Of a DNA stretch of 37,759 bases, positions 3,981 to 21,361 are shown one piece after another (within the stretch, counting starts at the first letter, position 1; each line of letters begins with the position of its first letter). A model generated the notes under the pieces. That model was not told the origin of the DNA and did not search any database. It saw nothing but the letters and a program-made list of their open reading frames with translations. Origin of the DNA: Candidatus Iainarchaeum sp. (lineage in GTDB: Archaea; Iainarchaeota; Iainarchaeia; Iainarchaeales; JAFGBZ01); contig JBDRGO010000043.1 in assembly GCA_043817715.1 (NCBI GenBank), forward strand, positions 1-37,759, given 5' to 3'. The position numbers and the translations under genes were made by a program.

Positions 3981-4385
3981 ATGAAAATGAGAAATAAAAT
4001 TTTTGCCATTGGACTCTTATTGGTATTCTTATTCATAGTCATTTATATAGGTTTAACATATCACTTTGCCCTTGTGTCAATGAATTATTATGACCGACCA
4101 GTAATAAAAATTGTGAATCTAAATGAAGAAGACATCACAGATTTACGCATTGAAGTTCGTAATAATTCCATATACATAGAAAAGATTCCAAAAGGCGAAT
4201 CAAGAACAGTAGAATTAGTCAATCCTTTTGGAGAAGATAGTATCAAATTAGTTTATATCTTTAAAGGAGAAATGCTAGAAAGAAATGTAGGATATATTGA
4301 ATCAATAGGAGGGTATAAAGTCAAAATAACAATTGATTCCAATGGACTAATTGATTTCAATAGTGGGCTCGGGCACTGGCCTTAA
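3981..4385 (+). CDS. hypothetical membrane-anchored protein
   Basis: 134-aa ORF with a single N-terminal TM/signal anchor. Confidence 0.45.
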   Translation: MKMRNKIFAIGLLLVFLFIVIYIGLTYHFALVSMNYYDRPVIKIVNLNEEDITDLRIEVRNNSIYIEKIPKGESRTVELVNPFGEDSIKLVYIFKGEMLERNVGYIESIGGYKVKITIDSNGLIDFNSGLGHWP

Positions 4386-4616
4386 CTAGCTTTTTTTACT
4401 TGTTTAAGTTTGAATTATAAGGGAAATACTTTAATTAGTGACTATGGCTCAAAGCCATTTCAATATAATTATTTATATGTTTTCTGATTTAGTATATTGG
4501 TTTTTATGAATGAAGAAGTAAAACTTGTAAACAAAGGTATTGAATTAGAAATGCAAGATATAAAAGAAGGAAAAGTAAAAAAATTAGATGAATTAATTGA
4601 ATTAAAATTGAAATAA

Positions 4617-6827
4617 TCAATCAATCTTACTTGCTTTTAATAAAATTGAATTGCTTACAACTGAAACTGAACTAAAAGCCATTGCCGCCCCTGCAATCAT
4701 TGGCGAAAGCATTAAGCCAAAAGAATAATAAAATACTCCCGCAGCAATTGGAACTCCTAACACATTGTAAACTAGTGCCCAAAATAAGTTTTGTTTTATT
4801 TTACTCATTGTTTTCTGCCCCAAATTAATTGCTTTAACAACATCCAATGGATTTGATTTCATTAAAACAATGTTTCCTGCTTCCATTGCAATATCTGATC
4901 CCTGCGCCATTGCAATGCCAATATTTGCCTGGGCAAGCGCAGGGGAATCATTAATTCCGTCCCCCACCATTGCAATAGTTTTTCCTTGTTCCTGCAGTTT
5001 TTTAACATAACTTGCTTTATCTTTAGGCAATACTTCAGCAAACACATTAGTAATTCCAAGCATTCCAGCAATTGCATTAGCAGTGCGTTTATTGTCACCA
5101 GTAATCATCCAAACTTCAATTCCTTTTTTCTTTAATTTCTGAACTGCTTCAATGCTGTTTTCTTTAATTGTATCAGCAACAGCAATTAAACCCAAAATTT
5201 TTTTTCCTGAAAATAAAACCATCACTGTTTTTCCTTCTGATTCTAATTTAGAAATTTGTTTTTCATTTTCAAAATTATTTTTTTCTTTTACATTGCTTAA
5301 ATCAGTTTTTTCTTTTGCGTAATTAGTGCTTCCTAAAAAGAATTCTTTTCCTGAAATTATTCCCTTGATTCCTTTTCCTGGAATTGCATTAAATGAGGTT
5401 ACTTTTGAAAAAGAAATTTTTTCTTCTTTTGCTTTTGAAACAATTGCTTCAGCCAAAGGATGCTCGGAATTTTTTTCCAGTGAAGCAGAAACTGATAATA
5501 ATTCTTTTTCTGATGAATTTAATGCAATTAAATCAGTTACTTTTGGTTTTCCTTGAGTTAATGTTCCTGTTTTATCAAATACAACTGCATTGATTTTATG
5601 GCTTAATTCAAGTGCTTCAGCATTTTTAATTAAGATTCCGTTTTCTGCGCCTTTTCCTGTTCCAACCATTATTGCAGTAGGGGTTGCCAAACCTAAAGCG
5701 CAAGGACAGGCAATAACTAAAACTGAAACACCTGCAATTAATGCAAATGAAAGCCCTTCAGAAAAAACAAAAAACCATGCAATAAAAGTAATTAATGAAA
5801 TAACAATAATTATTGGAACAAAAACCGAGCTGATTTTGTCGGCAAACCTTTGAATTTCTGCTTTTGATCCTTGAGCTTCTTCAACTAATTTAATTATTTG
5901 TGCAAGCACTGTTTGTGAACCGATTTTTGTTGCTTTGAATTTAATTAATCCATGTTTATTAATTGTTCCTGAAAAAACAGCGTCATTAATTTGTTTTTCA
6001 GTTGGAATACTTTCCCCAGTTAACATGCTTTCATCAATTGAAGTTGAACCAAAAATAATTACTCCATCAACAGGGATTTTTTCCCCTGGTTTAACAATAA
6101 TTATATCTCCTAGAGCTAAATCTTTTGCATCAATTAAAATTTCTTTTCCATTTCTTTCAATTAATGCCTTTTTTGGGCTTAAATCCATTAATTTCCTTAT
6201 TGCTTCACTTGCCTTTCCTTTGGCAATTGCCTCCAAATATTTTCCTAATAAAACTAAAGTAATCAGCATTGCAGCTGTTTCAAAATACTGTTCTGAAACA
6301 AAGCCAAGCAATGCAAAAACGCTGTAAAAATATGCGGCGCTTGTCCCGACAGCAATTAAAGTATCCATTGAAGCAGTTTTGTTTTTTAATGAACTCCATG
6401 CTCCTTTGTAAAAGTTTTTTCCTGCAATGAACTGCACAGGAGTTGCCAACAAAAACAAAACCCATATTCTAAAAGGCAAATCCATTAAAAACATTCCAAT
6501 AATAAAAATAGGAATTGAAAGAATAGCACTAAATAAAAGAGTTTTTTTTAAATCAGAAATTTCTTTTTTCCTTAAATTTTTTTCTCTTTCTAAATCAACT
6601 CCAATTCTTGCTTTATATCCCATTCCTGAAATTAATTCAATTATTTTTTCTAAAGAAATTTTAGATTCATCAAATTCAACAAATGCTTTTCCTGCAGCAA
6701 AATTTGCATTACCTTTTTTGATTCCTTCTGTTTTACTTAACTTATTATTAATTAAAGCAGAGCATGAAGCACAATGCATTCCTTCAACAATTAATTCTTC
6801 TTTTTTCATAAAAATCAACTCATTCAA
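4617..6827 (-). CDS. copA: copper-translocating P1B-type ATPase
   Basis: 736 aa. N-terminal HMA motif GMHCASC, TGES, CPC (ACPCALGLATP), DKTGTLT, GDGINDSPAL. Confidence 0.95.
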   Translation of the reverse strand: MNELIFMKKEELIVEGMHCASCSALINNKLSKTEGIKKGNANFAAGKAFVEFDESKISLEKIIELISGMGYKARIGVDLEREKNLRKKEISDLKKTLLFSAILSIPIFIIGMFLMDLPFRIWVLFLLATPVQFIAGKNFYKGAWSSLKNKTASMDTLIAVGTSAAYFYSVFALLGFVSEQYFETAAMLITLVLLGKYLEAIAKGKASEAIRKLMDLSPKKALIERNGKEILIDAKDLALGDIIIVKPGEKIPVDGVIIFGSTSIDESMLTGESIPTEKQINDAVFSGTINKHGLIKFKATKIGSQTVLAQIIKLVEEAQGSKAEIQRFADKISSVFVPIIIVISLITFIAWFFVFSEGLSFALIAGVSVLVIACPCALGLATPTAIMVGTGKGAENGILIKNAEALELSHKINAVVFDKTGTLTQGKPKVTDLIALNSSEKELLSVSASLEKNSEHPLAEAIVSKAKEEKISFSKVTSFNAIPGKGIKGIISGKEFFLGSTNYAKEKTDLSNVKEKNNFENEKQISKLESEGKTVMVLFSGKKILGLIAVADTIKENSIEAVQKLKKKGIEVWMITGDNKRTANAIAGMLGITNVFAEVLPKDKASYVKKLQEQGKTIAMVGDGINDSPALAQANIGIAMAQGSDIAMEAGNIVLMKSNPLDVVKAINLGQKTMSKIKQNLFWALVYNVLGVPIAAGVFYYSFGLMLSPMIAGAAMAFSSVSVVSNSILLKASKID

Positions 6828-16205: not shown

Positions 16206-17447
16206 ATGAAGGAAAAAAATGTATTGGTTCTGGCAATTGACAGGGACAATGATTTAGGGCATAAAACAGGCATTGCCGGACCGGTAATAGGAAGAAAAGA
16301 AAACTTAAAGGCAGCTGCAAAGCTGGCGTTATCTGACCCTTCAGAAAGCGATGCAAACTGCATGTTCGGCGCAGTAAAGAAATTCGAGGAACTGAAAACC
16401 GAATTCTCCAATGTAGAAATTGCAACATTAACAGGCCATTCCAAGGAAGGATTTGAATCAGACAAAAAAATCAATGAACAACTGGATGCAGTAATGGAAA
16501 AATTCCATGCAGAAGCATTTGTTCTGGTTACTGACGGAGGAGAAGATGACCAAACAATCCCGATTCTTCAGTCAAGAGCGCCGATTATTTCAAAGGAATT
16601 AATTATTGTCAAGCAGGCAAAAGAAGTTGAATCAATTTATTTCACAATAATAAATGCATTAAAGGAGCCAAGCATTAAAAGAATTGTTTTCCTGATTCCG
16701 GGAATAATTGTTTTATTGTATGGAGTATTGTTTTTTCTTGGCTCGGAAAAATTATTTCTGCAAATCATCAGTTTAGTTATAGGAATTTATTTAATTCTGA
16801 AAGGAACAGGGCTTGAAGAAATAATTGCGGAAGGAATTTCAACAATAACCAATTCAATTTCACTGCAAAGAGTAAGCTTTCCTTTTTACTTAATTACAAT
16901 TATTCTGCTGATTTTAGGAATTTATTCTTCCTGGTTTGCCTATTCAACAGGTGAAGGGACAATTTTAATGAAAGCCACAGAAATCATTAAGCAGATTCTT
17001 TTGTTCGGGGCATTAAGTGCTTTAAGCTTTGTGCTGGGCGTAAGCGTTGATTCAATTCATTTAAAGAAAGCATTTTATTTAAGGAATTATTTTTTAAGCG
17101 CAACAGCAATTGTGATTTTATGGTTTATTCTGGATTCAGCCAGGGCAGTCCTTGTAGGGGAACCGCAGGCATCACTTGAATGGCTTGTAATTAATATCAT
17201 AATTTCATTTGCTTTGGCATTAATTGCATACAGGATTTCAGGAATCCTTGATTTAAGGAAAAAAATCACCAGATTATTAATCGGACTGCCTGTTTACTCA
17301 AAAAAAGGGGAATGGCTTGGAAGGGTGACTGAAACACATAAAGAAAATAATTCAATTAAATTCAATGACACAAAATCAAAAAAAGAAATTACTTTAGAAA
17401 AAGGAAAATTCATGCTGAAAGGCGGAAGAGTATTATTAGTGGGCTAA
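16206..17447 (+). CDS. DUF373-like archaeal membrane protein
   Basis: The soluble N-domain reads [13 protein letters not shown]...[10 protein letters not shown] polytopic core follows. The C-terminal about 60 aa look PRC-barrel-like. Confidence 0.55.
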
Positions 17448-18925
17448 GCTTTCACAGCGAGTTTTTTCTTTAACTGATTGGGAACATTTACATCAACAAT
17501 TGATTTTAATTTTGCAAGCAATTTTCTGGAATCAGATGATTTGACAAAAGCATTTTCCAGAACTTCACTTAAAGTGCTTACAGGAATTAACTTGATTTTT
17601 TCGATTTTTTCTTTCGGCAAAATTACGTCCCCGAAATTGGATTTAGGAATAATCACTTCCTTAAATCCTGCCTTAATTGCAGCATTCACTTTTGCAGTAA
17701 CCCCTCCAACAGGCAATACTTCTCCTCTCACACTTAATGAACCAGTCATTGCAATTGATTGTTTCACAGGAATCCCTTCCAATGCACTAATTACTGCAGT
17801 AACAACTGAAACACTTGCTGAATCCCCTTCAACTCCGCTGTATGCCTGCAAAAATTGTATATGAAGATCATGTGTTGAAATGTCTTTTCCTGAAAGCTTT
17901 TTAATAATGGCTGAAACATTCTGCACTGCTTCTTTTGCAATTTCCCCTAATTTTCCTGTTGCAATAATTTTTCCTTCAGCCGATGATTGTGCAGGTGCAA
18001 CTTCTGCTTCAATAGGCATAATTAATCCTGCATCTCCGTCTCCTGAAACAGCCAAGCCATTAACCCTACCAATTGCATTTCCTTCAAATAAAAAAACTTC
18101 ATATTCTTTTCTTTCAGTTAAATACTGATCAACCATCTGCTGTTCAAGGGTTTTAGCCGACATTTTTGCCTGAAATACATCATCTGCCTCAACTAATTGC
18201 TTTCCTTTTTCCCTTGCAACATCCCCTGCAGCCCTTATTAATCCGCCAAGGTCCCTTAATTTTAAAGTTAATTTGTTTTTTTTACCTGCCCTTCTTTTTG
18301 CCTCAAAAATTATTTCCTGAACTGCTTCAAAAGAAAAATCAGGAATTTTTGTGTCTTTTTTCACTTCCTGCGCAACAAACTGCACTAATTTATTTCTGTT
18401 TTCAACTGAATCCTCCATTTCAAGATTCATATATAATTCATAACCATAACCCCTGATTCTGCTTCTTAATGCAGGATGCACTTTATCCAAATCCTGGTAA
18501 TTTCCCGCAGCAACCAAAACAAAATCACATGGAACTGCATCAGTTCTAGTCATTGCACCGCTTGACATTTCGCTTTGCCCGGTAATTGAATATTTTTTTT
18601 CCTGCATTGCAGTCAATAATTCCTGCTGTGATTTAGGAGTTAAAGTAGCAATTTCATCAATAAATAAAACCCCGCCATTAGAACGATGAATATAACCAGG
18701 CTCAACACGCAAATGAGGAGGAGTTCCTAAACCGCCTGAATTTGAAACCAAAACATCTTCAACAAACAAATTCCCTGTTTCAGTTGTGACGTTATATACG
18801 TGACCTTTGAATGGTTTGGATTCCTTTGAAGAAATTTTTGCATTTTTTGTTTTTAGTTCTTGCATACAACAATTTTCTTCAAAAACCATTAAATATTTAG
18901 CGTTGGAACAGAATTCACTCTGCAA
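17444..18925 (-). CDS. lonB: LonB protease C-terminal fragment: C-terminal intein half (18740-18925) plus C-extein (17447-18739)
   Basis: [22 protein letters not shown]|[15 protein letters not shown]... is followed by the rest of the AAA+ module and the Lon protease domain ([23 protein letters not shown]). The track start is a TTG with a stop 2 codons upstream. ATGs occur at codons 13 and 21. Confidence 0.85.
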
Positions 18926-19024
18926 TAACTAAATTTATTGAGAATAAGATTAAACGGAAAAAGAGATAGAAATAAACTACAAGAAAAGTTAATGCAATAA
19001 ACAAAAGTATTTTTATTTTTGCAC

Positions 19025-20092
19025 TCAATTTCTTTCACCTTTTAATTCATCCAAACATTTCTTTATTTCTCCATCAAATTTTTGTTTTTTTTCAACACAG
19101 TATTTTAATGGAAAAAGTTTGTGGAATTTTTGGACATTCTTACTGTTGCCTCTGAAAAAAATTCTGTAACCTAAACTCTTTTTTCTATCTTTTCGTCTGC
19201 TGTTTTTATAATTCTGAACTCCAATAAAACCAGTGCATTGAATTCCGAGTTTTTCCATATGATTCATTATCCCTGTTAAAAATTCTTTATGAGAAAATTC
19301 TAATTTATTATGTTTTGATAAACTAAATGAAAAATTCTTGAAATGACTTTTTCCATATTTTGTTGAAACAAACCTAGGAATAGAAACTTCAGCAGCAAAT
19401 AACCCATCAAAAAAAGCCAAAATAAGTTTTTTGCTAAGTGATTCAAATTTTTTAGGAAAAGAATAAAGAACAATTACTTTATCTCCAACTGGAACTCCTA
19501 AAACAACAAAAAACCTAATTACTGCTCGGTCACAAGTTCTTATACAAAAAGCATGACCATATTCACCAACATGAATTAAACTCAGTTTATCTTTAATAAA
19601 AGGAAAAACTTTTACAAAATCATTTTCCCATAAATCAATGTTTTCTTTGACTGAAGAAATAAAAGATAAAGTATTTAAATTTCTGTCAACACACCCATCA
19701 CCATAAATCATTCCAAGCATTCTAAAAACATCTTCAGCATGTTTATGATTTGAAGTAAAAGGCAATAATTCATATTTCTTCAATTTCTCAACTGTTTTCA
19801 AAGCTAAAGGAACTGCTTTTTTTTCTCCTTTAGTATGCCGCCATCTTGTTCTGCCTTGTGGAACACCCAATATTTTAGCACATCTTTTATAACCAAAAGA
19901 AGGATTTTCCTTCATTAATTTCAAGTATTCAGCGTATTTTTTGCATGAGAATTGCTCATCCTTTGAATAAGTATCAATTATATCCTGCTCAGAAACCAAA
20001 ATCATTGTATCTTTATGAAATTGGGTTTTTTGGTTTTTAAAGGATTTGGAAGAGTAGACTTCCGGTGCCAATTTTAAATAATTATTTTTCAT
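19025..20092 (-). CDS. free-standing LAGLIDADG homing endonuclease (double motif) with an N-terminal HTH-like region
   Basis: 355 aa. Motifs LGMIYGDG and LAFFDGLFAAE lie about 100 aa apart. GGAGGTG SD lies 6 nt before the ATG. An in-frame stop sits 20 codons upstream. Confidence 0.8.
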   Translation of the reverse strand: MKNNYLKLAPEVYSSKSFKNQKTQFHKDTMILVSEQDIIDTYSKDEQFSCKKYAEYLKLMKENPSFGYKRCAKILGVPQGRTRWRHTKGEKKAVPLALKTVEKLKKYELLPFTSNHKHAEDVFRMLGMIYGDGCVDRNLNTLSFISSVKENIDLWENDFVKVFPFIKDKLSLIHVGEYGHAFCIRTCDRAVIRFFVVLGVPVGDKVIVLYSFPKKFESLSKKLILAFFDGLFAAEVSIPRFVSTKYGKSHFKNFSFSLSKHNKLEFSHKEFLTGIMNHMEKLGIQCTGFIGVQNYKNSRRKDRKKSLGYRIFFRGNSKNVQKFHKLFPLKYCVEKKQKFDGEIKKCLDELKGERN

Positions 20093-20211
20093 TCCGAACC
20101 ACCTCCAAAAAGAATGAATTTTTTCATGGAACGGTTCAGAATTTTGGCAGTATTAAATCCTTTCGGAGTAAAACGGAGAAAGGTTTAAACTGACAAAATT
20201 CAAGTGTAATT

Positions 20212-20261
20212 ATTTCAATTTCGAAGAAATTGAAATATTTAAAGAACTCAAGTTCTTTAAA
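20212..20261. repeat. two adjacent perfect palindromes in the IntN-endonuclease spacer
   Basis: ATTTCAATTTC-GAA-GAAATTGAAAT at 20212-20236. TTTAAAGAACT-CA-AGTTCTTTAAA at 20238-20261. Confidence 0.9.
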
Positions 20262-20297
20262 TGAAAAAATTCTAAATTGGAGGGGGTGAGGAAAAAA

Positions 20298-21305
20298 TTA
20301 TTTATCTAAAAGAATCAAGTTATCGCTTTCGGAAACATCTTTTGCTTCTTTTTTATTTGGATTGCCAATAACTTTATGCTCAGGCGTAACCGCAATTTCT
20401 TTTCCATTAACATTTAAATGAATCAAGTCTCCATCAAATGGACGTCTATTCAAAGAAAGAATTCTTGAAAGAACTGGTTTATCTTCTTTATAACCAATAG
20501 TATAAATTTTTTCTTCATCTGGAAGCAGTATTGCTTCATAGCCTTTTTCGTTTCTGATAACTTCTTTTCCGTACTTTTCATACATTTCACTCCAAAGCTG
20601 CGGAAAAGGTTTTTTCTCAAATTCAAGTTCATTTTGACCTTCTTTTTGTAAATAAAGCTCTGAGAAGCCAAAACTTTGTAACGGATCATGTCTAACGTCC
20701 CCGAGTAATGCTCCTGCTCTTGCTCCTGTTGCTTCAATGAATGAAGCCATTTTTTTTTCTGAATTATCAATTAATAATTTTGGGGTAGGGTTTCCTGATT
20801 TCATTTTCATTTGGCTTCCTAAAGCAAATGCAATAAATAAAAAACCACCTAAAATCAAAGTTGCTGCATAAACTACATCAGGAATTAAATTCAAATAACT
20901 CCATAAAATAAATGAAATTAAAAAAAAACCTAATGAAAGAATCATTGAAAGTAATCTTGCATTGTCTTCTAATGCTTTTGAATCCAAATTTGCTTTTTCC
21001 ATTATTTTTTTTCCTTCCCCTGCTTTAACTGTAACAATTTTTGGATTATTTGAATCTTTTTCATTCGGATAAACCAATACATCAACCAGCTTGGATACAG
21101 GCATTATTTCAGCCATTGCTGCCGCAAGCATTGATTTCCCTGTGCCTGGAATTCCGACCAATAAAACATTTCTTTTTTGCGCAGCTGCTTTCTTAATTAT
21201 TTCAACTGATTTTTCCTGCCCGATTACCTGCCCAACCATTTTCTTCGGGACAGAAATTTCTTTAGTTGAAGTGAACTTCAATTCAACTGGTTTTTCTTCT
21301 TCCAT
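20298..21305 (-). CDS. lonB: LonB protease N-terminal fragment: N-extein (20676-21305) plus N-terminal intein half (20301-20675)
   Basis: Walker A GIPGTGKS, two TM helices, and GDVRHDPLQ. Then S-FGFSELYL (block A-like) and IAVTPEHKV (block B TxxH), with a stop after 125 intein residues. Confidence 0.85.
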   Translation of the reverse strand: MEEEKPVELKFTSTKEISVPKKMVGQVIGQEKSVEIIKKAAAQKRNVLLVGIPGTGKSMLAAAMAEIMPVSKLVDVLVYPNEKDSNNPKIVTVKAGEGKKIMEKANLDSKALEDNARLLSMILSLGFFLISFILWSYLNLIPDVVYAATLILGGFLFIAFALGSQMKMKSGNPTPKLLIDNSEKKMASFIEATGARAGALLGDVRHDPLQSFGFSELYLQKEGQNELEFEKKPFPQLWSEMYEKYGKEVIRNEKGYEAILLPDEEKIYTIGYKEDKPVLSRILSLNRRPFDGDLIHLNVNGKEIAVTPEHKVIGNPNKKEAKDVSESDNLILLDK

Positions 21306-21361
21306 AATAATAATTATACTATAAATGAATAATTAAAAAGCTTTGTTGGGAGTAATTAATC

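Follow-up and report, generated by a model that had tools for sequence, protein, structure and literature searches.

In the archaeon Candidatus Iainarchaeum sp., the gene for the membrane protease LonB is fractured: the stretch of 37,759 nt analyzed here (contig JBDRGO010000043.1, hereafter the window) carries lonB as two open reading frames (ORFs), each ending or beginning in one half of an intein, with a free-standing LAGLIDADG endonuclease gene between them. The 1936-bp cassette lies at window positions 20675-18740, after lonB codon 210 (HDPLQ|SGGLGTP, where the bar marks the junction). It is highly likely that the two LonB halves are joined by protein trans-splicing through the N- and C-terminal intein halves (IntN and IntC), and that the endonuclease maintains the mobility of the cassette. 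A first-pass annotation, made from the DNA sequence alone, had read the locus as such a fractured gene; its split halves and free-standing endonuclease are supported by recurrence in more than 100 assemblies, by selection and by synteny, and the ligation itself is the part that we infer.

The two exteins fit together without a gap. In particular, the N-fragment ORF matches the LonB equivalog model TIGR00764 over positions 2-196 (E = 3e-57); after GDVRHDPLQ, it continues for 125 intein residues (SFGFSELYL ... TPEH ... LILLDK) and then stops. Beyond its IntC, ORF 17444-18925 matches model positions 167-607 (E = 2e-198). Joined in silico, the exteins (210 + 431 = 641 aa) match TIGR00764 in one stretch, from position 2 to 607 of 608, with a score of 862.6 bits and an equivalog cut-off of 516.6, and their alignment to the intact LonB of Thermococcus onnurineus (3k1j) is gapless over the junction, where 3k1j reads GDVRHDPFQSGGLGTPAHE. 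The same alignment places the insertion point after Walker A and ahead of Walker B, in a loop that is tightly conserved. Walker A is on the N half and Walker B and the Ser-Lys protease are on the C half; neither fragment holds both Walker motifs, and only the joined exteins combine Walker A and B, the transmembrane helices and the Ser-Lys dyad of a full-length LonB. The catalytic residues of LonB and of the intein are all kept. The ORFs are separated by gaps of 205 nt and 159 nt with multiple stop codons, and no single indel restores one frame. These results bear out the first-pass annotation in its coordinates for the three minus-strand ORFs, in its identification of the N ORF as membrane LonB with Walker A and two transmembrane helices up to GDVRHDPLQ, in the exact resumption of LonB on the C ORF, in the 641-aa total expected of an intact protein and in the several stops between the ORFs; the alignment to LonB orthologs that it had proposed gave the gapless junction described above.

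IntN and IntC are predicted to add up to a complete HINT domain, broken in the loop that usually accommodates an endonuclease. A profile of IntN alone matches the M. jannaschii KlbA intein (2jmz, E = 1e-7) and also the VMA, PolC, NrdJ-1 and PI-PkoII inteins (E = 0.002 to 0.7). Further, a fused IntN+IntC profile spans both halves of whole mini-inteins, including KlbA (2jmz, 5.6e-14), NrdJ-1 (8ubs, 1.7e-10), Pho RadA (4e2u, 1.6e-5) and Spl DnaX; its alignment to NrdJ-1 runs through the terminal HN|S, and the C-termini of the NrdJ-1 and RadA inteins are aligned with that of IntC. Across the best 120 homologs of the N-fragment, intein position 1 is Cys in 60 and Ser in 60 and nothing else, the block B motif TPEH is kept by all 114 whose sequence is not truncated at a contig end, and the intein part is at most 151 aa long. 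The terminal Asn and the +1 Ser are invariant in every locus examined. The window allele is free of cysteine in both halves, with Ser1 and the +1 Ser as its nucleophiles. The penultimate IntC residue is mostly His in the family; it is Ser in the window, Cys in two loci (L004 and L024) and Lys in two others (L027 and L036).

The family alignment agrees with the first reading of 125 intein residues with a block A-like Ser1 and a block B TxxH, and of blocks F and G with a terminal Asn directly before LonB resumes. Ser1 had been called unusual, which the even split between Ser and Cys contradicts; the penultimate Ser does deviate from the consensus His, as had been remarked, but two contiguous relatives of the intein (P0232 and P0223) also end in SN. 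Three candidate starts had been listed for the C-fragment, a TTG and an ATG at codon 13 or 21. About 20 related loci have kept an ATG 39-44 codons ahead of the junction; because of this conservation, the C-fragment of the window almost certainly starts at codon 21, an ATG (window 18865-18863), which gives an IntC of 42 aa.

The split recurs among DPANN archaea. More than 100 homologs of the N-fragment include IntN (261-428 aa, most 330-390 aa, 48-66% identity), originate from many assemblies labelled Ca. Diapherotrites, Iainarchaeum or Micrarchaeota, and all stop within a few residues of one another. A survey of one genome per species yielded 35 species-level loci (Iainarchaeia/Diapherotrites, Micrarchaeota and Nanoarchaeia), and wherever a locus reaches the end of IntN, the N ORF terminates directly behind it. 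The ratio of nonsynonymous to synonymous substitution rates (dN/dS) could be calculated for three unsaturated locus pairs, most pairs being saturated at synonymous sites; the exteins give 0.03-0.10, IntN gives 0.08-0.28 and the endonuclease 0.11-0.13, and IntC gives 0.30 in the one pair where it was measurable. These low ratios indicate purifying selection on exteins, IntN and endonuclease. Some other genomes have 1.3-4.6 kb of sequence with unrelated genes between the halves, some of these genes on the opposite strand (L008 8206-9339 and L032 5400-6710), which rules out read-through, frameshifting and bypassing at those loci and requires two separate polypeptides; the N-fragment of L029 has no C half within 8 kb. 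As a separate observation, a gene of about 230 aa (MAGLFAHVWIAKLVLEKLSRKGFISSYENIDDYFFGAIAPDIRY...) recurs between the endonuclease and the IntC-LonB half in several genomes (Table 1).

Relatives carry the same site in several other states. In a search with the joined exteins, HDPLQ|SGGLGTP is uninterrupted in 116 of the closest 120 LonB homologs, the best of which is 82% identical, and many of these empty-site homologs are labelled Ca. Diapherotrites. For example, loci L040 and L041 have the same neighborhood as the window (NTP-transferase, RNase Z, lonB, DUF373, Band_7 and SpoIIM) around a single uninterrupted lonB of 652-653 aa, whose site sequence is CATGAyCCnyTnCAA|AGCGGnGGnTTAGG. From this shared synteny, the window locus is the orthologous lonB, interrupted by the 1936-bp element. 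Other allele states were found by an exhaustive HMMER search with IntN. P0232 (1159 aa, locus L039) has a contiguous full intein at the window's site, and the window ORFs are collinear on it (N to positions 3-365, endonuclease to 334-672 and C to 701-1115). P0223 (837 aa) has a contiguous mini-intein, with Ser1 and SN|S as in the window. P0242 (locus L038) represents a one-break form. Its IntN and endonuclease still share a single ORF, with an ATGA overlap to the ORF of IntC; the contig name is in hifiasm style, suggesting a long-read assembly. Thus, contiguous, empty, one-break and split forms all emerged from the comparison of relatives at the same locus that the first-pass annotation had suggested.

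Moreover, the endonuclease gene itself varies in state. Sequence beyond the N-fragment stop is available for 31 of the 35 loci, and 26 of them have an endonuclease match, located between the halves or, on truncated contigs, downstream of IntN. The gene is complete and undamaged in 21 loci and truncated by the contig end in L011; frameshifts or reduction to a remnant affect 5 (including L022, L032 and L034, with L025 being a remnant at the ORF level only), and the gene is absent from 4 (L004, where the halves are adjacent, L012, L027 and L031). The split halves would persist after endonuclease loss because the host needs both LonB halves. The similarities of IntN and exteins are discordant: L006 and L035 share 86% of their N-extein but 45% of their IntN. 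L001 and L002, two contigs of one metagenome-assembled genome (MAG; JAHJUD01), are 99% identical in the N-extein, 72% in IntN and 84% in the endonuclease, reflecting either two strains binned together or a recent exchange of the cassette. Overall, pairwise distances of intein and endonuclease correlate weakly to moderately with those of the exteins (0.04-0.52), a hint of lateral exchange. The pattern of alleles carries what appear to be the signatures of a homing cycle of gain, spread, decay and loss. The endonuclease is of the LAGLIDADG type and is collinear with the module inside a contiguous intein that occupies this site (P0232); for this reason, it is more likely a module liberated from a formerly contiguous intein by double fission than an invader. 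Further, P0337 (archaeon GW2011_AR10) and P0287 have a different contiguous LAGLIDADG intein of about 425 aa (CILPDQLVSLPNGK ... LTHN|S) at the identical LonB site, implying that at least two intein lineages compete for it.

Additional inteins were observed elsewhere in LonB. In four genomes, LonB seemingly comes in three pieces, with a second intein, broken once, at a site that corresponds to Cys133 of the window's C-fragment (about 18529-18527) and is unoccupied in the window. The middle ORF of these loci consists of a first IntC, 70 aa of extein, a second IntN, a LAGLIDADG domain and an extra C-terminal tail; this LAGLIDADG domain is 26-29% identical to the window endonuclease, N-terminal module included. 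The next ORF overlaps by a few nucleotides and opens with the second IntC (...GYVYNxKTxxGTYxANSIVVHN|C). These loci look like an intermediate stage of gene fracturing. L004 (6223-9195) has a contiguous LAGLIDADG intein at HLRVE|C(G)LIHKA together with endonuclease-less split halves 231 nt apart, and L036 (2775-4994, a Nanoarchaeia MAG) has a contiguous intein in the Walker A loop (GEPG|C...HN|TGKS), upstream of the same split site. By these sequences, LonB appears to be an intein hot spot with at least four sites.

The middle ORF of the window had been described as a 355-aa protein with its own GGAGGTG ribosome-binding site (RBS), a helix-turn-helix-like (HTH-like) N-terminal region and two LAGLIDADG motifs. 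The GGAGGTG is indeed located 7 nt before the ATG, and both motifs hold: D132 (LGxxFGDGG) and E235 (FLDGLLxSEVS) are invariant in 26 aligned endonucleases of 29-74% identity. The N-terminal region is a strongly conserved helical domain of about 95 aa in the same alignment, with no match in a Pfam scan even at E <= 10, which leaves the HTH-like assignment unproven; the conserved part of the protein begins at Met30 (window 20005). The ORF aligns with positions 217-453 of NF038162, the endonuclease region of an RtcB model that includes an intein (E = 3.5e-17), and a profile of the endonuclease family found no meaningful match among PDB sequences. All 96 endonuclease homologs are free-standing (243-393 aa) and none is embedded in a longer protein; the 11 that are shorter than 319 aa are mostly on contigs of 0.9-2 kb. 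An AlphaFold (AF2) model of the endonuclease (pLDDT 87.3, pTM 0.84) predicts a pseudo-dimeric alpha-beta-beta-alpha-beta-beta-alpha fold, that of a monomeric, double-motif enzyme. Its Foldseek matches include I-Tsp061I (2dch, E = 3.7e-8), I-DmoI (target-normalized TM up to 0.72), E-DreI, the endonuclease domain of the Tli VMA intein and WhiA-type LAGLIDADG folds.

Separately, a conserved small ORF (44-56 aa) follows IntN and precedes the endonuclease gene in nine loci, with its own GGAGGTGG Shine-Dalgarno (SD) sequence and usually overlapping the endonuclease start (consensus M.F..E....P..EEI......L(T/D)(D/S)RELWILENF plus an acidic tail). The window has no separate small ORF; its equivalent SD and ATG are fused in frame to the endonuclease.

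A TATA-like box near -30 of the start codon is the geometry of archaeal promoters that give leaderless mRNAs. Upstream of the IntC ATG, TTTAA or TTTTA occurs at -27 to -32 in 20 of 20 loci, within a sequence that resembles a transcription factor B recognition element (BRE) and TATA box (...ctATTTAAt...). Most of the N-fragment starts in about 28 loci also have a TTTAA/TTTTAA-like box near -30, as judged from anchored upstream regions rather than tabulated positions. The endonuclease ORF has no box at -30, but has the SD-like GGAGGTG(G). The LonB halves are therefore probably expressed from separate promoters as leaderless mRNAs. The C-fragment had been noted for having no obvious RBS; the observation stands, but a leaderless promoter with a conserved TATA-like box is a plausible explanation, and makes it less unusual than had been thought.

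The spacer between the N-fragment stop and the endonuclease is predicted to be strongly structured, with a minimum free energy (MFE) of -66.1 kcal/mol for window 20085-20300 (z = -9.2 versus shuffled sequences). In its closing stem, CCUCACCCCCUCC (20291-20279) pairs with the SD sequence GGAGGUGG (20106-20099). The equivalent anti-SD tracts change together with the bases flanking the SD in L033, L011, L024, L007 and L010, with such pairs of tracts as GGAGGTGGC/GCCACCTCC, GGAGGCGAT/ATCGCCTC and GGAGGCGGT/ACCGCTTCC among relatives. In a hand-registered alignment of the helix, 86% of the cells pair and 3 of 11 pairs show compensatory changes, compared to 30-62% paired cells and no compensatory changes in slid controls; this alignment holds six sequences, registered by hand because MAFFT misaligned the window tract, which weakens its value as evidence. 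The covariation is suggestive of a long-range anti-SD:SD helix that masks the endonuclease RBS. Masking of this kind is known for phage homing endonucleases (PMC2677866). The spacer also contains two near-perfect hairpins (AAAGAACUUGAGUUCUUU, about 20258-20241, and UUUCAAUUUCUUCGAAAUUGAAA, about 20235-20213) and a third (UUAAACCUUU...AAAGGAUUUAA) common to the window, L007, L010, L011, L024 and L033. These hairpins may terminate the N-fragment transcript, regulate the endonuclease, or both.

The following mechanism would account for these features. The syntenic lonB carries a cassette composed of IntN with its stop codon, an endonuclease gene with an SD sequence, and a promoter, ATG and IntC. 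Two polypeptides would be made from separate promoters, a membrane-anchored LonB(1-210)-IntN and a soluble IntC-LonB(211-641), whose intein halves would associate into a full HINT domain and carry out class-1 protein trans-splicing, by an N-O acyl shift at Ser1, transesterification to the +1 Ser, cyclization of the terminal Asn and an O-N shift. The product would be a seamless LonB of 641 aa with its AAA+ module, Walker A together with Walker B, restored. The endonuclease most likely still cleaves unoccupied lonB alleles, leading to homing of the whole cassette and turning an intact lonB into a split one, and its translation is probably kept low by the anti-SD:SD helix. A more far-reaching version can also be proposed, in which the cassette is an actively homing, gene-splitting element that makes two transcribed genes out of one in a single event, with all of its stages extant, and in which the split also serves as a host checkpoint and the endonuclease is partly co-opted. 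We consider this extension rather unlikely as a whole. If true, the assembly of active LonB would depend on an encounter between the membrane-anchored N half and the soluble C half, a post-translational checkpoint, and regulation with partial co-option would account for the persistent selection on the endonuclease and for its masked RBS.

Several alternatives treat the locus as broken or as a single gene. The first-pass annotation had considered a decaying intein and a dead lonB, where the stops and frame changes are inactivating and the ORFs are pseudogene remnants. Three pieces in different frames with several stops between them, a penultimate Ser in place of His, and decayed endonucleases in the related loci L022, L025, L032 and L034 would fit such decay, but the identical break points in more than 100 assemblies and 35 species, the dN/dS of 0.03-0.10 in the exteins and about 0.1 in the endonuclease (unsaturated pairs), the retention of every catalytic residue of intein and LonB, the conserved promoter-like box and ATG that arose for IntC, and a position syntenic with the single lonB of relatives make it very improbable. 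Still less credible is an artefact of assembly or sequencing, with assembler indels breaking a contiguous, intein-containing lonB. The window is a single metagenome-type contig, and a search for its exact N-fragment and endonuclease sequences on other contigs found none, and thus no independent assembly of this allele; however, a single indel cannot restore one frame, the same architecture is present in independent assemblies from many projects and assemblers (the one-break L038 with its hifiasm-style name among them), and the spacers hold a conserved SD sequence, a TATA-like box and structured RNA. Recoding, by which frameshifting or bypassing would join the ORFs into one cis-splicing precursor, is equally remote. 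The adjacent ORFs of one-break relatives do overlap by 4-20 nt, but the window ORFs are 205 and 159 nt apart with multiple stops, other genomes have kb-scale gaps and opposite-strand genes, and each half has its own promoter-like box.

Two further explanations accept the split but assign its parts other roles. The intein halves may only dimerize, giving a two-chain LonB with no or conditional splicing. Phage NrdA provides a precedent, as a split enzyme assembled by interaction domains derived from mobile elements (PMC3045599); the window has no penultimate His, and a 167-residue HINT insert in the AAA+ module might be tolerated. Set against these points, residues needed only for the chemistry are invariant or restricted to nucleophiles (Cys or Ser at position 1, the block B Thr and His, the terminal Asn and the +1 Ser), and the loop that holds the insertion, between the two Walker motifs, is tightly conserved, so that purely non-covalent reconstitution is improbable. 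Somewhat less improbable, though still unlikely, is a middle ORF that has become a domesticated, non-cleaving LAGLIDADG regulator or assembly factor similar to WhiA, a role compatible with trans-splicing of LonB. Selection on the endonuclease as strong as on the host gene (dN/dS about 0.11), a syntenic position held across DPANN classes, the extra conserved N-terminal helical domain, WhiA-type folds among the structural matches and seemingly tight control of expression are all in keeping with domestication. Domesticated LAGLIDADG proteins such as WhiA are not known to retain the catalytic acidic residues, whereas D132 and E235 are invariant in 26 sequences of 29-74% identity; further, close relatives offer many empty target sites, IntN and exteins disagree in their similarities, and the endonuclease gene is dispensable, with about 9 of 31 loci showing its loss or decay and the split halves still in place.

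Trans-splicing with a mobile cassette is thus the preferred explanation, and several results weigh against it. The penultimate His assists Asn cyclization in many inteins, and the window IntC has Ser in its place; splicing could be slower in this allele as a result. The profile searches that the first-pass annotation had recommended gave a divided answer: the family's own profiles succeed (KlbA at 5.6e-14 and NF038162 at 3.5e-17), but the Pfam models are below their cut-offs, both for the intein (PF14890, 15.8 versus 35.8 bits) and for LAGLIDADG (PF14528, 13.7 versus a gathering score of 22.5 bits). The NCBIfam intein model TIGR01445 is also below its cut-off (20.0 versus 24.5), the intein family being divergent. 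A single-sequence AlphaFold model of the fused halves has a pLDDT of 37, the HINT fold thus coming from profile matches only, and the two halves are complementary in charge in the window, a property that is weak and inconsistent across the family. The covariation of the anti-SD helix comes from the six hand-registered sequences mentioned above. Finally, both the ligated 641-aa product and DNA cleavage are what we infer, and the window spans 38 kb of the genome, elsewhere in which a second lonB is possible.

Dassa, London, Stoddard, Schueler-Furman and Pietrokovski (2009, PMC2677866) described fractured genes at 26 loci, mainly phage-like or metagenomic, in genes for DNA synthesis or repair enzymes. 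Their endonucleases were GIY-YIG or Vsr-like, families not found inside inteins, i.e. invaders; the fracturing of genes by LAGLIDADG or HNH enzymes was only predicted (PMC2677866). The LonB locus is similar to theirs in having a free-standing endonuclease gene between the halves, a break at the intein's endonuclease-insertion point and presumed trans-splicing. It differs in residing on an archaeal chromosome (a cellular DPANN genome), in a membrane AAA+ protease as host gene and in its LAGLIDADG endonuclease, and the LonB family would confirm the 2009 prediction for this enzyme class. The cyanobacterial DnaE (Ssp/Npu) and Nanoarchaeum equitans PolB inteins are likewise split in the same region and divide essential proteins, with an IntN of about 100-125 aa and an IntC of about 30-45 aa; the fused profile weakly matches the Neq IntC chain (5oxx). 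DnaE and Neq PolB split loci are not known to contain an endonuclease gene, and their halves lie far apart and are fixed in their lineages. In contrast, LonB has adjacent halves and has kept its endonuclease, the site occurs in polymorphic states (empty, contiguous, one-break, fractured and endonuclease-less), and the window nucleophiles are Ser and Ser with no cysteine.

Contiguous LonB inteins are also known, 10 of them being listed for Euryarchaeota (Novikova et al. 2016, PMC4760082). These and the AR10-type intein (P0337) differ from the window in being single-ORF and cis-splicing with an embedded endonuclease, and the likeness to the euryarchaeal ones is in the host protein. P0337 and P0287 additionally share the site HDPLQ|SGGLGTP and a similar block F/G (...VYNMTTSTGTYLVNNVLTHN|S) with the window. 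The predicted endonuclease fold resembles I-DmoI, I-Tsp061I and the Tli VMA domain (Foldseek E = 4e-8 to 1e-4, target-normalized TM 0.6-0.7), including the two acidic LAGLIDADG helices; unlike I-DmoI and I-Tsp061I, the window endonuclease has an extra N-terminal domain of about 95 aa and is encoded between intein halves rather than inside an intron or an intein, and its identity to the structures is 11-16%. In the searchable literature, subscription-only papers being outside that scope, no specific description of a split or fractured LonB or of a DPANN split-intein family was found.

Cellular organisms have few natural split inteins, with cyanobacterial DnaE, Nanoarchaeum PolB and scattered examples from metagenomes or phages. 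The LonB family would add a large and diverse set of more than 100 variants, in an essential DPANN protein outside DNA metabolism. It also makes the proposed pathway from contiguous to split visible at one site, through empty, full, mini, one-break and two-break states to endonuclease loss with the halves drifting, and the origin of split inteins and split genes becomes testable there. The window allele, in turn, is a fully cysteine-free candidate natural split intein with a canonical split site. According to one report, cysteine-free split inteins are sought as protein-ligation tools under oxidizing conditions (PMC13014065). These loci are presently annotated as 'ATP-binding protein', 'hypothetical protein' or 'sigma-54 interacting regulator'; as a consequence, LonB may score as missing or fragmented in DPANN metabolic reconstructions.

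Table 1. Features of the fractured lonB locus in the window, followed by recurrent features of related loci (numbered within each locus).
Feature	Position	Strand	Basis
N-fragment ORF (335 aa: LonB N-extein + IntN + stop)	20298..21305	(-)	TIGR00764 and intein family alignment
LonB N-extein, 210 aa, Walker A (GIPGTGKS), two transmembrane helices, ends ...GDVRHDPLQ	20676..21305	(-)	TIGR00764, 3k1j alignment
IntN, 125 aa, Ser1 (block A), TPEH (block B), no cysteine	20301..20675	(-)	family alignment, IntN profile
Spacer from N-fragment stop to endonuclease ATG, three predicted hairpins inside a long-range stem	20093..20297	(-)	RNA MFE
Free-standing LAGLIDADG homing-endonuclease ORF, 355 aa	19025..20092	(-)	NF038162, homologs, AF2, Foldseek
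LAGLIDADG motif 1 (FRMLGMIYGDGC, LGMIYGD132G), invariant D132	19688..19723	(-)	endonuclease alignment
LAGLIDADG motif 2 (LILAFFDGLFAAEVS, FFDGLFAAE235V), invariant E235	19379..19423	(-)	endonuclease alignment
IntC, 42 aa from conserved ATG, blocks F/G, terminal Asn, penultimate Ser	18740..18865	(-)	locus alignment, fused profile
LonB C-extein, 431 aa + stop: +1 Ser, Walker B (VLFIDEI), lid domain, Ser-Lys protease domain (GDSAS ... GGVTAK)	17444..18739	(-)	TIGR00764, 3k1j
TATA-like TTTAA at -32 of N-fragment ATG, putative leaderless promoter	21333..21337	(-)	upstream regions of about 28 loci
BRE/TATA-like box AAATATTTAAT, TTTAA at -28 of IntC ATG, putative leaderless promoter	18888..18898	(-)	upstream alignment
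Predicted anti-SD tract CCUCACCCCCUCCAA just after N-fragment stop	20277..20291	(-)	MFE pairing
SD-like GGAGGTGG of endonuclease ORF	20099..20106	(-)	upstream sequence
Apparent three-piece LonB loci	L006 11029-14129; L018 9526-12592; L024 10617-13704; L034 9884-12984		
Gene of about 230 aa	L006 9837-10595; L012 4025-4708 and 5962-6663 (duplicated); L014 9594-10286; L035 9979-10677		
Small ORF (start)	L003 9162-; L006 8615-; L008 6937-; L013 9440-; L015 616-; L016 672-; L022 3665-; L028 2926-; L035 8573-		

Scans of the window for tRNAs and Rfam families returned no match. L029 (Micrarchaeia) contains a second, shorter Lon-like gene (4097-5572), a 492-aa open frame about 44% identical to parts of LonB that lies 1.4 kb upstream of the N-fragment of the split lonB. 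In the window, the stop of the minus-strand C-fragment overlaps the end of a convergent DUF373 gene (16206-17447, plus strand) by 4 nt (17444-17447); genes are packed very tightly here, and likewise in the syntenic loci L040 and L041.

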